Shown here: positions 448-20,139 of the stretch, in pieces
Numbering within the stretch: position 1 is the stretch's first letter
Layout: each line of letters opens with the position of its first letter
Assembly (NCBI GenBank): GCA_018433775.1
Contig: JAHDQN010000040.1
Span: 20,587-84,586, forward strand
From: Deltaproteobacteria bacterium
Lineage (GTDB): Bacteria > Desulfobacterota > Desulfomonilia > UBA1062
Direction of reading: 5' to 3'
DNA: 64,000 bases
The notes under the pieces: generated by a model
Seen by the model: the letters and a program-made list of their open reading frames with translations, nothing else
Database searches by the model: none
Told to the model about the DNA's origin: nothing
Program-made: the position numbers and the translations under genes

Positions 448-507
448 TCCCAACGTGGGCATCAGCGGCGCGGCTCCGCCGCGTCCGCCTGGATGCCTTG
501 GTTGGAT
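448..507 (-). repeat. attC recombination site (cassette boundary)
   Basis: The plus strand reads TCCCAAC...GTTGGAT. The inner stem is AGCGGCGCGGC / GCCGCG(T)CCGC, flanked by GGCATC / GATGCC. The unpaired bases (T, C, G) are all on the 3' arm of the plus strand, as in an attC bottom strand. Confidence 0.7.
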
Positions 508-1208
508 GATCTCTTGCATGTTTGAGGGACAGGCAGAATAAATCCTAATAATGAACTCATAATCAAAACTGCTATCCAAAAGTATATTGACAGGTAGAAA
601 GACCTCATCCCCCATTTGCTTAACTCTCTAGATTTCAATAGAGCTTCTCTTTGTTCTAGTTCTTTGTTTGTGGGTATGTATAATTCAATATTACCACTCT
701 CTGTAATGTAATTTGATTGAACACCATCTTCATAGAACAAAATTCCCGCATAAAATTTGCTTATTTTTGATTTTGTATTAATTGAGTCATTTGTAGAATT
801 AATGCGTGATACGATGATATCACGAATTGTATCTGGAGTCCTGTGAGGCGCTATTTTTTTGAATGTTTGGTATCCAACGACACTCATAAATAAACAAGAT
901 ACGATTATAAAAACACCTACAGCTGAATATATAAGTCCCTTTAAGGTGTAGCCGCTCTTTCGAATATCTCGGATACCAACAATAATCATTGTTGCTACCG
1001 CTGTTGTTAGTGCAACATCGCGAAATACGCGGATAAGCCATTCAATGAGTGCAACTTCGTGCGAAGCACTAAAAGGATCAAAATCAATAAAAATTAGGTA
1101 GAAAAGGTCAACAAAAATATAAAATGCAAAACCTAAAGGGATGATCCATTCACTGATACTTGATGGCCATCGAAATATTTTACTTATTATTGACATACCT
1201 ATTTTCAT
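462..1208 (-). CDS. Hypothetical multi-pass membrane protein (cassette-encoded)
   Basis: 248-aa ORF. Hydrophobic segments include WIIPLGFAFYIFVDLFYLIFI, TAVATMIIVGI, LIYSAVGVFIIVSCLFMSVVG and a C-terminal FYLSIYFWIAVLIMSSLLGFIL. The ATG directly abuts attC 1207-1263, and the stop codon lies inside attC 448-507. Confidence 0.55.
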   Translation of the reverse strand: MKIGMSIISKIFRWPSSISEWIIPLGFAFYIFVDLFYLIFIDFDPFSASHEVALIEWLIRVFRDVALTTAVATMIIVGIRDIRKSGYTLKGLIYSAVGVFIIVSCLFMSVVGYQTFKKIAPHRTPDTIRDIIVSRINSTNDSINTKSKISKFYAGILFYEDGVQSNYITESGNIELYIPTNKELEQREALLKSRELSKWGMRSFYLSIYFWIAVLIMSSLLGFILPVPQTCKRSSNQGIQADAAEPRR

Positions 1209-1263
1209 CCAACGTACCGATCACCGGCGGCTAAAAGCCGTCCGGTGCATTGGCTGGTTGGGC
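1207..1263 (-). repeat. attC recombination site (cassette boundary)
   Basis: The plus strand reads ATCCAAC-GTACCGAT-CACCGGCGGC-TAAAA-GCCG(T)CCGGTG-CATTGGCTG-GTTGGGC. The 3' arm carries an extra T. The central part is nearly identical to attC 2996-3052. Confidence 0.8.
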
Positions 1264-1326
1264 CTTTCGTGCATATATGCAAGGTAATTAATTATAACAT
1301 GCGGGGTTTTATTGCTGTATATAGCT

Positions 1327-2028
1327 TCATTCCTTTTGACTTCTTCTGCTATCTCTTCTGGCTTTTGCAAGTTTAAGCCTTGCTGGCTCGGTATATATTC
1401 TTTCTAGTAGCATAATAGTGAAATCAAGTAAGTCTTCAGCGTCCTCTCGTTTCAGTGTCCCTGCATGTGCACCATCGTTACCATCTTCACGCACACAAGC
1501 AGATAAATCACGTAAGCTCTCTGGAAGTATGCATTGATCAAACATCCATGGTAATCGCAATCCTAAATCACGACGAATACGTTTATTTAAGCCATTTGCA
1601 TCTTCTTCGGGAAGCATTCCCCTTGTAACAATGTCAATACACAAACGAAACATTGTACCAGCAGCATTATTACATCCAACAGCTAGACATGTTGCACCTT
1701 CACGAAAGACCTTTTCCACATCATCTGGTATGTGTTCCGGAGGCTCTGTTGTGGCAGTATCTTTTAAGCTTATGAATCCCTCAATATCAACATAAGTGTT
1801 CACTGCGCCTTTGAAACTTAATAAACCTTTTTCATGTACAAGCTTATAATTACCGTGAACATTTTCTGACAGAACAAATATTGTTGCCCGATGACAATGG
1901 CGACATTTACAGAAGGATTCATACCATTGCTGCCAGTCATATTTTACATACGTAACATGGGCTGCAATAATGTCGAAGGTAATCTTTTGTGCATGACATC
2001 GTGGACAATTTGCTACTAACTCAGCCAT
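1327..2028 (-). CDS. Zinc-ribbon plus DUF4145-like protein (cassette-encoded)
   Basis: 233 aa. The N-terminus has CPRC...CRHC cysteine pairs. The C-terminal helical region resembles DUF4145 (AVGCNNAAGTMFRLCIDIV, DGNDGAHAG, DAEDLLDFTIMLLERIY). The start lies about 40 nt after the attC core, with an AAAGGAA RBS. Confidence 0.55.
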   Translation of the reverse strand: MAELVANCPRCHAQKITFDIIAAHVTYVKYDWQQWYESFCKCRHCHRATIFVLSENVHGNYKLVHEKGLLSFKGAVNTYVDIEGFISLKDTATTEPPEHIPDDVEKVFREGATCLAVGCNNAAGTMFRLCIDIVTRGMLPEEDANGLNKRIRRDLGLRLPWMFDQCILPESLRDLSACVREDGNDGAHAGTLKREDAEDLLDFTIMLLERIYTEPARLKLAKARRDSRRSQKE

Positions 2029-2070
2029 AAAATATTATTCCTTTCACATAAAAAACATTTGTGACTTGAT

Positions 2071-2127
2071 GCCCAACGTAAGGGTCAGCCGCGCGCGTAG
2101 CGCGTCGGCTGCAACCTATGGTTAGGC
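2071..2127 (-). repeat. attC recombination site (cassette boundary)
   Basis: The plus strand reads GCCCAAC...GTTAGGC, a perfect match to RYYYAAC / GTTRRRY. The stem is CAGCCG-CGCG [CGTAG] CGCG-(T)-CGGCTG, with an extra T on the 3' arm. Confidence 0.8.
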
Positions 2128-2130
2128 GAT

Positions 2131-2985
2131 TTAACTAATTGTTAAATTTACTAATTCCTTAAAATCGCTTTCTCTTATTATGCGAAGATACTGCCCCTTT
2201 TTAATCAGCGATTCTGCTTTTCTGTGTTTGGAGCTTTTGTCATGGCCTGCAAGTTTTTTTACATCTTGATCCCCAACTACCAAAATAGTTGTATCCTTCC
2301 TAACCCCGTTAGCTACTGTGCAACCTATTTTTGAAGCCATATCAGCTGCTTCTCGCCGTGGAATATCAAGAGCACCGGTGAAAACTAAGACCTCACCAAA
2401 GAGATATCCCTCTGGATTACCTTCTCTTGAAATGCTGCTTGAAGGATCGATTGGTTGTTCGACACGTCTTAGCCAACCTTGTAAATCGATGCCCGTCTTA
2501 GCAATTGCAGCTAAAAGAATATGTGCAGCAGCTTTTGCATCTTCAAGGGCGTCATGATGCGCAAATTGGTATCCTAAGTTATTGCATACATTTGCAAGGC
2601 CGTACCCACTCCATGCAAATTGTTCCCATGTCCTGCGTGTTACGCGAGCAGAATCTAGCCAAGTACATGAAGGATTGCGAAGGTCATATTTTAAGCAAGC
2701 TTGTTGAATAGCCACTCGATCGAAATGGGTATGACAAACAACAATTCTACCATCTAAGTAATTGTATAAACGACTTGCAGCATCTGGCAGAGTGGGAGAG
2801 CCTTCTACTGTGGATTCATCGATTCCATGTATAGAAATGTTCATCCAATCGAAAAAATCCTCTGGATCGATATATGTCTTCCACTCTTCTTGCAACAATC
2901 CATTTTTGAAGACTGCAAGTCCTATTTGGCAGATTGAAGACATATCAGCATTAGCAGTTTCAAAGTCCAATGCTATAAAGTCCAT
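2131..2985 (-). CDS. DEDDh (DnaQ/epsilon-like) 3'-5' exonuclease fused to a C-terminal BRCT domain (cassette-encoded)
   Basis: 284 aa. Exo I is ALDFETAN, Exo II is CHTHFDRVAI and Exo III is HHDALEDAKAAA. The BRCT-like tail is GEVLVFTGALDIPRREAADMASKIGCTVANGVRKDTTILVVGD. An AGGAGG RBS sits immediately after the attC core (GTTAGGCAGGAGGCATTATG). Confidence 0.8.
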   Translation of the reverse strand: MDFIALDFETANADMSSICQIGLAVFKNGLLQEEWKTYIDPEDFFDWMNISIHGIDESTVEGSPTLPDAASRLYNYLDGRIVVCHTHFDRVAIQQACLKYDLRNPSCTWLDSARVTRRTWEQFAWSGYGLANVCNNLGYQFAHHDALEDAKAAAHILLAAIAKTGIDLQGWLRRVEQPIDPSSSISREGNPEGYLFGEVLVFTGALDIPRREAADMASKIGCTVANGVRKDTTILVVGDQDVKKLAGHDKSSKHRKAESLIKKGQYLRIIRESDFKELVNLTIS

Positions 2986-2995
2986 AATGCCTCCT

Positions 2996-3052
2996 GCCTA
3001 ACGTGCAGATCACCGGCGGCTGAAAGCCGTCCGGTGCATTTGCGGGTTAGCC
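2996..3052 (-). repeat. attC recombination site (cassette boundary)
   Basis: The plus strand reads GCCTAAC-GTGCAGAT-CACCGGCGGC-TGAAA-GCCG(T)CCGGTG-CATTTGCGG-GTTAGCC. Confidence 0.8.
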
Positions 3053-3079
3053 AGCCTACCCATATAATTTTATCTGGCA

Positions 3080-3880
3080 TTACAGCGGAAGACAATAAAT
3101 TAGATCTGTATAGCATTTTTCAACCACATTTTTTGGAAAAGGTAAATGTTCGTAATCACTTCCAATTATCCCTTTATTCAAATTCATTTGGTTGTCACAA
3201 AGGATAATTATGTATTTACCAAGGGCTTTAGCATACGATGTCTCACTAAGAATCCACGAGGTGTCTCCGGGTGTAAAGATACAGATAAAAATATCTTGTG
3301 AATGTATTTTTTGGGCCACTTTATCTGGTATATTCTTTGTTTCATAACCACTTCCTTCTTTAACGTCGAATCCGAGACGTCTGAGAAAGGTGTTGAGTTT
3401 GCCTGAAACATCATTTCCGTATTCATCAAACCTATGTGCTAAAAAAATAGACTTCTTTAACCCATACTTTGATACTTTGGCTGAAACATCTTCGCCGGGA
3501 TTACTGGCTTGGAAAAATGATTTTACATGATCATGTATTGAGCTAATAATATCTAGATCATCTGATCTTACACATACTTCAAGACCTGACTTGCGAATAT
3601 TAATTATAGTTGAAAACCCAAGAGATGCATTTTTGCCCCAATAGTAATGTACATATATTGGCAAAGCATTGGGATAAGTTTCAAGCAAACGCATGAACTC
3701 CTGAAAATTTTCAGCGTGAAGTCTTCTGAATTCACCAATATGCAGACTTAAAGAATGTGAGTCTGATTTTGGTTCTTGTGGTTTATATTTATTGATCTTC
3801 AAGTATTCATCAAATTGCCTAAAGGATGATAGTATATCTAAATTACTTGGGTATACAGAATACTCTCTATCTTCTTGCAT
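3080..3880 (-). CDS. Protein with unknown N-terminal domain and C-terminal TIR-like (DUF1863/TIR_2-like) domain (first cassette)
   Basis: 266 aa. The C-terminal roughly 120 aa (KKSIFLAHRFDEYGNDVSGKLNTFLRRLGFDV...DIFICIFTPGDTSWILSETSYAKALGKYIIIL) follow the TIR-like pattern: a beta-strand, an acidic loop, then an S-W-x3-E motif. I recognise nothing in the N-terminal 140 aa. Confidence 0.5.
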   Translation of the reverse strand: MQEDREYSVYPSNLDILSSFRQFDEYLKINKYKPQEPKSDSHSLSLHIGEFRRLHAENFQEFMRLLETYPNALPIYVHYYWGKNASLGFSTIINIRKSGLEVCVRSDDLDIISSIHDHVKSFFQASNPGEDVSAKVSKYGLKKSIFLAHRFDEYGNDVSGKLNTFLRRLGFDVKEGSGYETKNIPDKVAQKIHSQDIFICIFTPGDTSWILSETSYAKALGKYIIILCDNQMNLNKGIIGSDYEHLPFPKNVVEKCYTDLIYCLPL

Positions 3881-3896
3881 AAATACTGCCCCCTAT

Positions 3897-3967
3897 GGCT
3901 AACAACTTCCTCTACTGCATAATTGCAGCAAAAGTTGCTATATAGCAACTTTTGCTGCAACATTATG
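3897..3967 (-). repeat. Terminal cassette core site plus atypical 38-bp perfect palindrome (array boundary; truncated attC or attI remnant?)
   Basis: GGCTAAC at 3897-3903 is GTTAGCC on the cassette strand, the same core as at 3046-3052. A perfect palindrome TTGCAGCAAAAGTTGCTATATAGCAACTTTTGCTGCAA spans 3923-3960 and extends 5 bp further after a 2-nt bulge. There is no matching GTTRRRY box on the right side. Confidence 0.45.
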
Positions 3968-4311
3968 AATTACGAATATACCATGCTCCTCTTTTCGGAA
4001 GACCTTTCTCCTGGGGGGAGAGCTCGTGAGGGCCGTGCAGGAATCAGGGCAGACTCCGTCAGTAGAAGGTGAACGTGAAGATAGAAAATGGTCTCCTCTC
4101 ATTCATTTCATGCATCGACAAGGTCCGGCCGCCATTCCTGGCGTCCGGGCAATAACCTGTGAATACGATATCATTTTTTCCGCGACAAATCCAGATGAAA
4201 GTGAAAATGCTCAAGCCGCACGGGACTGCACCGTTCATGGCCCTGCCGCTCTGTACGGGCGGTCGAGCGGGCTGAACAGACCCCGCCGGGGTTTCCGGAG
4301 GCGTTACAGCC

Positions 4312-5946
<1,635 letters not shown>

Positions 5947-18710: not shown

Positions 18711-18807
18711 CCCTGATCTCTAAGCTCCGCCACTGTAGTACTAAGTATCTGCGTGCAGAAACCCGGCCCGGTGTATACATCAACCGGGCCGGTCCGTCCA
18801 TCATTCT

Positions 18808-20139
18808 TTAGAGCAGCGGCAGATAGGTGTCGATCTCGTACTTGCTGACATGGGTCCTGAAGGCGTCCCACTCCTTCTTCTTGTTTTCTACGAACTTCTC
18901 GAAGATGTGGTCACCCAGGGCCTCCCTCACCAGCGTGCTCCCGGACACCTCCTGGATCGCCTCGAAGAGGTTGCCAGGCAGCGAGGTGATCCCGGCCTCC
19001 TCCCGCGCCTTCTCGTCCATCTCGAAGATATCCTTCTCGATGGGCTCGGGCAGGGTATACCCTTTTTCAATGCCCTCCAGCCCGGCCGCTATCTGCACCG
19101 CAAAGGCCAGGTAGGGGTTGCAGGCCGGGTCAGGCGCCCTGAACTCGATCCGGGTGGCCTTGGCCTTGCCCGGCTTGTACATGGGGACCCTGAGCATTGC
19201 CGAGCGGTTTCTCCTGGCCCAGGACACGTAGACCGGGGCCTCGTAGCCGGGAACGAGCCTCTTGTAGGAGTTCACCCACTGGTTGGTGACCGCGCAGATC
19301 TCCCGGGCGTGGTTGAGAATACCCGCGATGTAGTGCTTGCCCACCTTCGAGAGATGGTACTTGTCGCCCGCGTCGAAAAAGGCGTTGTCGTCGCCCGTGA
19401 ACAGCGACTGGTGGACGTGCATGCCGCTGCCGTTCTCGCAGGCGAGCGGCTTGGGCATGAAGGTGGCGTACACCCCGTGCTGGCGGGCGATCTCCTTGAC
19501 CGTGGTCCGGTAGGTCATGACGATGTCGGCCATGGTGAGCGCCTCTTTGTACCGCAGGTCGATCTCGTGCTGCGACGGGGCGACCTCGTGGTGGCTGTAC
19601 TCCACCTGGATGCCCATCTTCTGCAGGCTGAATATGGTGTCGCGCCGGATGTCGGGGCCCCGGTCGATGGGCAGGCCGTCGAAGTACCCTCCCCTGTCCA
19701 GGATGGTGGTGCACTTGTCGTCTGCGAAGTAGAAGTATTCCAGCTCCGGCCCGAGAAACACGTTGTACCCTTTCTCAGCCGCCCTGGCCAGCACGCGCTT
19801 GAGCGCGTATCGCGGGTCGCCTTCGTAGGGGGTGCCCTCCGGGGTCAGGATGTCGCACACCATGCGGGCCACGGGATAATCCGACGGTCTCCAGGGCAGG
19901 AGCTGGAAGGTGGCGGGGTCCGGCTTGGCGATCATGTCGCTCTCGTGGACCCGGGCAAAGCCCTCGATGGAGGACCCGTCGAAACCCATGCCCTCCTCGA
20001 TGCCTTCTTCAAGTTCCGAGGGCGTCAGATTGAAGCTCTTGAGCCTGCCCAGAACATCGGTGAACCAGAACTGTATGAAGCTGACCTTGTGTTCCTTTAC
20101 AGCCTTCATAACATCTTGCTTTGTCTTGCATTGTAACAT
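18808..20139 (-). CDS. glnA: Glutamine synthetase, type I
   Basis: 443 aa from the ATG at 20139 (GGAGGA RBS): MLQCKTKQDVMKAVKEHKVSFIQFWFTDVLG. Further motifs are GSGMHVHQSL and NPYLAFA. Confidence 0.95.
   Translation of the reverse strand: MLQCKTKQDVMKAVKEHKVSFIQFWFTDVLGRLKSFNLTPSELEEGIEEGMGFDGSSIEGFARVHESDMIAKPDPATFQLLPWRPSDYPVARMVCDILTPEGTPYEGDPRYALKRVLARAAEKGYNVFLGPELEYFYFADDKCTTILDRGGYFDGLPIDRGPDIRRDTIFSLQKMGIQVEYSHHEVAPSQHEIDLRYKEALTMADIVMTYRTTVKEIARQHGVYATFMPKPLACENGSGMHVHQSLFTGDDNAFFDAGDKYHLSKVGKHYIAGILNHAREICAVTNQWVNSYKRLVPGYEAPVYVSWARRNRSAMLRVPMYKPGKAKATRIEFRAPDPACNPYLAFAVQIAAGLEGIEKGYTLPEPIEKDIFEMDEKAREEAGITSLPGNLFEAIQEVSGSTLVREALGDHIFEKFVENKKKEWDAFRTHVSKYEIDTYLPLL

Follow-up and report, generated by a model that had tools for sequence, protein, structure and literature searches.

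The minus-strand block from position 3903 to about position 3968 is quite probably an attI-type primary recombination site, serving an integron-like array of cassettes in one clade of the Desulfomonilia. It lies in a stretch of 64,000 nucleotides, hereafter called the window, whose source organism belongs to a Desulfomonilia lineage common in anaerobic digesters. The site behaves as an attI: nine different first cassettes are found behind it, the homology between related loci ends at the crossover GTT, and seven of the eight first cassettes whose attC is assembled begin with the exact complement of its R'' box.

The cassette array and its boundary

The features discussed below are as follows (positions are those of the window).

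448-507, 1207-1263 and 2071-2127, minus strand: three further attCs, bounding cassettes 2-4, found with the covariance model
2996-3052, minus strand: attC of the first cassette, R'' GGCTAAC ... R' GTTAGGC, scoring 71.9 bits with model R1, its structure with compensatory changes
3002-3902, minus strand: first cassette, with an ORF at 3080-3880 (266 aa, weak TIR-like match) and most of its own attC
3897-3903, minus strand: composite core site GTTAGCC, with the crossover between G3903 (attI side) and T3902 (first base of cassette 1)
3903-3968, minus strand: conserved core of the proposed attI, comprising CATAATG, the inverted repeat and then TTATGCAGTAGAGGAAGTTG; 10 of 66 columns are variable in four lineages
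3913-3972, unstranded: extended imperfect inverted repeat around the palindrome, with five more pairs past a 2-nt bulge
3923-3960, unstranded: perfect 38-bp palindrome of two 19-nt arms, TTGCAGCAAAAGTTGCTAT and ATAGCAACTTTTGCTGCAA
3969-4311, unstranded: non-coding spacer separating the attI core from the stop codon of pyrG, with a few conserved blocks, e.g. GAAAAAATGATATCGTATTC and GTTCACCTTCTACTGACGGAGTCTG
4312-5937, minus strand: pyrG (CTP synthase; Pfam CTP_synth_N and GATase), in the same orientation as the cassettes

When the minus strand is read, each cassette in the window begins with bases complementary to the R'' of the attC that it carries. The terminal cassette is no exception: its core GTTAGCC (3903-3897) is the exact complement of the GGCCTAAC-type R'' box GGCTAAC (3046-3052) in the attC of the same cassette; a genuine recombination junction therefore lies between 3903 and 3902, and the array has its promoter-proximal end there. 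A cassette start that complements its own R'' is the signature of a circular cassette intermediate. On the plus strand positions 3897-3903 read GGCTAAC, as the original prediction had reported, and the minus-strand reading GTTAGCC is the R'-type core of the last cassette (cassette 1 in the direction of the array).

The minus-strand array to the left of the boundary is a genuine cassette array. The attC covariance model (R1; nine attCs, 21 pairs, 11 of them with compensatory changes) matched the 64 kb at only four places, the minus-strand attCs listed above, and the array continues past the start of the window, in which at least four attCs are visible. With four attCs to the left of 3903 and none to its right, the earlier proposal of an array boundary is supported, as the promoter-proximal end of the array. 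The model had no match in 3904-4311 or in the spacers of relatives, and the R'' partner is absent; on the lack of a partner box, and on this not being a normal attC, our results agree with what had been noticed at the outset.

The arms of the palindrome (3923-3941 and 3942-3960) are 19 nt each and 100% complementary with zero intervening bases, exactly as had been described; by our own arithmetic, the chance of a perfect 19+19 palindrome in 64 kb is about 2e-7 (64000 x 4^-19). The five-pair extension past a 2-nt bulge was seen again in the predicted fold, in which CATAA (3918-3922) pairs with TTATG (3963-3967). No second copy of the palindrome half-site was found in the window with up to three mismatches allowed. 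The motif AAGTTGYTA has three copies in the window, all inside 3900-3951, one in each palindrome arm and one at the crossover; the crossover copy is lost in the related locus L082 (AAATTG) and in the L096 group (AACTTG). The palindrome core gave no match in viral contigs. Base composition changes sharply across the boundary: the cassettes have 39% GC and the block 3903-3994 has 36%, vs 57% in the remaining spacer (3995-4311) and 62% in the core genes.

The first cassette is present with identical sequence in contig L001, from a separate Logan assembly, in which the right arm and the junction are also 100% identical to the window. This contig breaks within the palindrome; breaks inside palindromes are usual for short-read assemblers. 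An assembly chimera at the palindrome is ruled out, since the same adjacency occurs in many independent assemblies.

An IntI1 query that recovers Xer-type recombinases from unrelated loci (1e-18 to 1e-29) detected no tyrosine recombinase at E≤1, either in the window or in 415 kb of related loci; intI is absent in cis. A search of the spacer for an intI pseudogene (Pfam at E≤10, tblastn at word size 2) returned scattered, non-colinear noise only, so that the earlier statement that nothing in 3968-4311 resembles IntI stood up to the relaxed tblastn with the IntI1 query. With attCs present and no integrase detected in the window or the related loci, the locus is by definition a CALIN (at least two attCs, no integron integrase detected nearby) and not a complete integron.

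Relatives of the locus

To the right of the boundary lie pyrG and then carB. The PyrG protein of the window matches P0001 at 100% identity and Desulfomonilia proteins at 94-96%, and the members of its cluster are named Desulfomonilia or Deltaproteobacteria ADurb.BinA179. Among the GTDB species representatives the closest PyrG is 76% identical, too distant for intergenic comparison. Exact look-ups of the 544- and 541-aa forms of the window's PyrG and of P0001 gave no record; loci of relatives were reached via proteins P0004, P0006, P0008, P0121 and P0123, and 27 independent contigs (L082-L085, L086-L088, L096-L105 and L106-L115) with PyrG identities of 94-100% were compared as close relatives. 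These came from NCBI, ENA, JGI and Logan assemblies and represent four spacer lineages. Assemblies with this locus include GCA_018433085.1, GCA_018436855.1, GCA_050949605.1, GCA_035407445.1 and GCA_035430725.1. One further locus, L002, has kdsA and lpt genes 3' of pyrG; these are absent from the window and its synteny was set aside as irrelevant.

All 27 contigs carry pyrG, a homologous spacer and the inverted repeat. The junction ...GTAGAG(G/A)AA(G/A/C)TTG↓TT, in which the arrow marks the crossover, is present in all of them except L083, whose contig end lies inside an IS that splits the inverted repeat. In all four lineages the homology among relatives stops exactly past GTT, beyond which nine different first cassettes are found. 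The alignment with the pyrG downstream regions of relatives that had been suggested with the original prediction thus gave a shared flank up to GTT and variable cassettes after it, and the opinion that this is not a recognisable attI has to be revised: a flank conserved to G↓TT before nine different first cassettes is the behaviour of an attI.

In seven of the eight first cassettes whose attC is visible the starting 7-mer is the exact complement of that attC's R'' box. The pairs of 7-mer and R'' are as follows.

Exact: GTTAGCC with GGCTAAC
Exact: GTTCGGC with GCCGAAC
Exact: GTTAGGC with GCCTAAC
Exact: GTTCGCA with TGCGAAC
Exact: GTTATGT with ACATAAC
Exact, in two different cassettes: GTTATGC with GCATAAC
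One mismatch: GTTGGAC with GCCCAAC

The attC of the L096-type first cassette was located as well and stands outside the eight junctions compared. The arrays of relatives have the same layout as that of the window, with attC-bounded cassettes running in one direction, and those of L096 and L106 contain at least ten attC sites.

The crossover has been used repeatedly, also between loci with the same flank. L086, L087 and L088 have 388-nt spacers that are 100% identical and three different first cassettes, and the seven arrays compared in this respect (window, L082 and L084-L088) have no cassette in common. In the L096/L106 group two alternative arrays, which differ in at least the first three cassettes, are each found on both spacer variants; a direct before/after insertion pair was sought between the two L096-group arrays and was not found. 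Seven independently assembled contigs of 22-59 kb (L101-L105, L114 and L115) end exactly at the crossover GTT. This is the output of an assembler when a population branches at the crossover, and suggests that several first cassettes coexist in those samples.

Selection on the interval is uneven. Across the four lineages 10 of the 66 columns of the core (3903-3968) are variable, vs 124 of 287 (43%) in the remaining alignable spacer (Fisher p=1.8e-5). The palindrome, with three variable columns in 38, is the most constrained element of the interval; five of the 20 nt next to the crossover vary, which is more than in the palindrome. The palindrome is perfect in the window lineage only, the repeat of relatives being imperfect at 17/19. 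Where the right arm of the window has the dinucleotide AA, L082 has AT and the L084 and L096 groups have GT; the perfect form is probably derived. Outside the core, spacer identity tracks the identity of pyrG four-fold sites between lineages (e.g. 0.884 vs 0.881 and 0.788 vs 0.779); this part of the spacer evolves at about the neutral rate and is under little constraint. For some pairs the relationships of pyrG and of the spacer are discordant. The pyrG of L086 is 97% identical to that of L082 at four-fold sites, and its spacer is 96% identical to that of L084 and 81% to that of L082, a mosaic pattern that indicates homologous recombination, its breakpoint lying close to the stop codon of pyrG.

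More distant relatives without cassettes (L089-L095, PyrG 83-86%) have pyrG, an unrelated intergenic region of 255-536 bp and a DUF3857-transglutaminase gene (1308-1318 aa). It had been considered beforehand that such relatives might carry the same palindrome and spacer downstream of pyrG, as an ordinary terminator region; the opposite is seen, in that the intergenic regions of L089, L091 and L092 are unrelated to that of the window. No homology to the window spacer or palindrome was found in these three, at a PyrG divergence (83-86% identity) that makes detection hard, so that the missing homology is no proof that the spacer came with the array.

L082 is the only fully assembled locus. Its order is pyrG, spacer, the inverted repeat with an IS inside it, a single cassette whose attC is 132 nt long, elements of IS200/605 and DDE type, a 232-aa ORF, an ancestral promoter-like motif and the DUF3857 gene. 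No intI was found at either end, and this order therefore locates the array with its platform between pyrG and the DUF3857 gene with intI at neither end. The IS in the repeat (L082:12062-13762, DDE_Tnp_1) sits at the exact centre of the inverted repeat, corresponding to window positions 3941/3942; its terminal inverted repeats are TGTTCATCCGGAAA and TTTCCGGATGGACA, and CTATATAG is duplicated on either side. The L082 array is reduced to one cassette and further ISs. A motif TTGAAAT.C..C...AAAAT(A/G)TTTA... lies upstream of the DUF3857-transglutaminase gene in L089 (11720-11780), L091, L092 (11870-11910) and L082 (17320-17370). It is conserved with or without cassettes, is on the far side of the array in L082, and looks like the promoter of the DUF3857-transglutaminase gene.

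Nature of the site and competing explanations

We propose that the array was inserted between pyrG and the DUF3857-transglutaminase gene in one Desulfomonilia clade. Extrapolating from established integron biology, an integron integrase encoded elsewhere in the genome, or contributed by a mobile element, would act in trans. The folded attC of an incoming circular cassette would recombine with the double-stranded site at G↓TT (between 3903 and 3902), and the new cassette would thereby be placed first in the array. The inverted repeat may be a protein-binding part of the platform; at a guess, it could hold accessory recombinase sites like DR1 and DR2 of attI1, or an operator/promoter region for promoterless cassettes. 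The remaining ~340 bp would be non-coding leader or relic DNA, and transcription of the cassettes may start in the spacer or read through from the co-oriented pyrG.

There are a number of points against the attI reading. The integrase in trans is assumed, IntI-binding boxes are not assignable, and the 20 nt next to the crossover are more variable than the palindrome, with AAGTTGYTA lost there in L082 and the L096 group. A scan of the boundary for sigma-70 consensus promoters gave no site above threshold; an extended -10-like TGcAATTAT, 18 nt after TTGCTA, was noticed by eye and is weak and below the scan threshold. Exchange of whole arrays by homologous recombination, for which the discordance of pyrG and spacer speaks, could explain part of the variation between strains, and the cassette-less relatives are too diverged for their missing spacer homology to be decisive.

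The site resembles attI1 of the class 1 integrons in lying at the promoter-proximal end of an array that runs in one direction and in having its crossover at the G↓TT of a 7-bp GTTRRRY-type core. As with attI sites generally the upstream side is conserved and the first cassette downstream varies; this likeness is one of position and junction criteria, and similarity in sequence to known attI sites would not be expected. The attI1 site consists of the DR1 and DR2 sites plus a simple site, of which the conserved 65-90-bp block described here, with its repeated GTT-containing motifs, is reminiscent. Unlike attI sites it has no adjacent divergent intI, the 3' end of pyrG lying about 409 bp away and co-oriented with the cassettes, and at 20-57 nt from the crossover it has an inverted repeat of 38 bp that is nearly perfect. 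The described attI sites are not known to have a counterpart of this repeat.

CALINs are defined as clustered attC sites without an integron integrase (Cury et al. 2016, in the wording of later papers), and the window conforms to this with its attCs and with no intI detected in the 60 kb past the boundary. The CALINs of Xanthomonas likewise sit at conserved places on the chromosome and are regarded as mobilisable in trans. Usual CALINs are seen as remnants or as insertions at secondary sites, whereas the 5' boundary here is conserved and constrained and has received at least nine first cassettes; the first cassette changes even within populations with identical flanks, unlike in the usual view of CALINs. 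The attG sites (Loot et al., 10.1101/2022.09.11.507474) are numerous and have almost no consensus. They share with the present locus that cassettes lie outside a complete integron at a GWT triplet, where nearby host transcription can express them; here, in contrast, one and the same site, flanked by a long conserved sequence, has been used repeatedly.

Another form of the attI reading is possible though doubtful, namely that the block is a self-standing, orphan docking platform, an attI long kept by selection without an integrase of its own and recognised via the 38-bp repeat (e.g. in the form of a cruciform or hairpin, or through binding of a recombinase or host factor outside the canonical arrangement of attI-bound IntI). 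It would then represent a distinct class of attI, by which a chromosome harvests cassettes with the integrases of other elements.

The repeat might alternatively act mainly as an RNA or DNA hairpin (a terminator, processing site or stability element), by which the array is insulated against transcription of pyrG. Its fold is highly stable on either strand (-35 and -30 kcal/mol, z-scores -5 and -6), and pyrG and the cassettes are co-oriented; moreover, the GT of relatives and a C to T change in the left arm of L082 allow G.U wobble pairs on the cassette-direction strand only, and the changes to AT and AA raise pairing. The hairpin is AT-rich with no T-run on either strand, however, and a terminator scan of the boundary was silent. 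It lies ~350 nt past the pyrG stop and directly before the crossover, where it fits a platform element better than a pyrG terminator, and cassette-less relatives do not have it, all of which makes this a rather unlikely account. Of the terminator or insulator suggested originally, the hairpin stands and the U-tract is missing, and it may still have such a role. By eye the repeat was also compared with a dif/Xer site, with a sigma-54 promoter and with a LexA box, and all three were rejected because spacing or bases do not fit. That the spacer is instead a structured small RNA or a small protein, as the 20-27-nt blocks kept in the most diverged lineage might suggest, we consider very unlikely. 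The whole window had no Rfam match at gathering thresholds and 3800-4400 only hits at E of about 0.9 or higher, so that the Infernal/Rfam check put forward in advance produced no RNA family at the boundary; RNAalifold gave an unfavourable covariation term for either strand, and L096 disrupts many of the pairs. These results speak against the small RNA that had been offered as an option, as does a divergence close to that of pyrG four-fold sites. Six-frame pieces of 3968-4311 gave no Pfam match at E≤10, and among relatives indels of 1 and 6-7 nt break every frame and, with others of 27, 62 and ~160 nt, exclude a conserved ORF; the region is ORF-less, as first described. Even further from the data is the idea, also from the original prediction, that a deletion of intI and attI left a truncated attC behind. 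The core GTTAGCC is indeed a normal R' box, but the attC model has no match, the flank lacks the ...ACGTT context and other features of the attC family of these arrays, and four diverged lineages have kept it as one unit before nine different cassettes; we regard this origin as exceedingly unlikely.

The two remaining explanations accept the cassettes and dispute the history of the site. In one, an early insertion at a GTT in native pyrG-DUF3857 intergenic DNA founded the array at a secondary (attG-type) hot spot, and the block is native regulatory DNA. Integrases insert at GWT sites genome-wide and most CALINs are not near intI pseudogenes (10.1101/2022.09.11.507474); here too no intI remnant was found in the spacer with Pfam or the IntI1 query, and the spacer (~350-570 bp) is similar in length to the cassette-less intergenic regions. 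Yet the block, with 36% GC where the genome has 62%, passes without a break into the AT-rich cassettes, the ancestral promoter-like motif of L082 lies on the far side of the array and not in the spacer, and the block is in none of the cassette-less genomes compared. Repeated use by nine first cassettes is, besides, the operational definition of an attI, and we think a founding hot spot unlikely. In the other, a dead relic that no longer recombines is all that remains of an integron whose intI was lost, and the variety of first cassettes goes back to ancient events or to the homologous replacement of whole arrays. The mosaic L086, with pyrG near L082 and spacer near L084, the ISs in several arrays, and the split repeat and single remaining cassette of L082 are all in keeping with this. 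Identical 388-nt spacers are nevertheless followed by three different first cassettes, each of the two alternative arrays of the L096 group is found on both of its spacer variants, and seven assemblies branch exactly at GTT; each distinct junction needed site-specific recombination after the pyrG-spacer-attI arrangement had been fixed in a common ancestor. A dead relic is accordingly quite unlikely, and we return to an attI-type site as the preferred reading.

CALINs are common and are mostly taken as debris or as one-off secondary insertions. The present locus provides natural population data on a CALIN whose conserved, constrained 5' boundary repeatedly gains first cassettes. If an unlinked integrase serves the site, attI platforms can persist and function as independent units, and survey counts of "inactive" arrays would be too high. 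With its ~90 bp and conspicuous inverted repeat, the site also lends itself as a small test case for the question of what makes an attI. As several cassettes match candidate anti-phage families, the site may help to set the defence repertoire of an abundant anaerobic-digester lineage.

Cassette genes and minor features of the locus

Three blocks of the spacer are near-invariant even in the most diverged lineage, L096. They lie at about 4160-4185, 4040-4068 and 4093-4104 of the window and read, on the minus strand, GAAAAAATGATAT(C/T)GTATTC, GTTCACCTTCnACnGACGGAGTCTG and GAGAGGAGACCA; neither a promoter consensus nor an RNA structure was found for them. The L096/L106 lineage has ~160 extra nt directly after the pyrG stop codon (L096:11627-11790, L106:11703-11873), for which the source annotation gives a 56-aa ORF with no Pfam match that is absent from the window lineage.

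The attCs and the cassette bodies differ greatly in composition, the four attCs of the window having 61-70% GC and those of all loci scored 49-75%, vs 39% for the cassettes. Two attCs are unusually long (L082:14142-14273 and L096:15775-15907; 132-133 nt vs 55-64 nt in the others) and still score with the family model.

A toxin-antitoxin pair of RelE/MqsA type makes up one cassette of the longer arrays (L096 and L106, ~18771-19375); toxin-antitoxin cassettes are common in sedentary chromosomal integrons. Among the cassette ORFs at 462-3880 of the window, 1327-2028 matches the candidate anti-phage family PD-T7-4, 2131-2985 specifies a DEDDh exonuclease with BRCT and a match to PDC-S48, and the weak TIR-like match of 3080-3880 is likewise to a candidate anti-phage protein. 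The first cassette of L084 (L084:12075-14111) encodes a histidine kinase, a response regulator, and a response regulator fused to a CAP12/Pycsar-type TIR domain.
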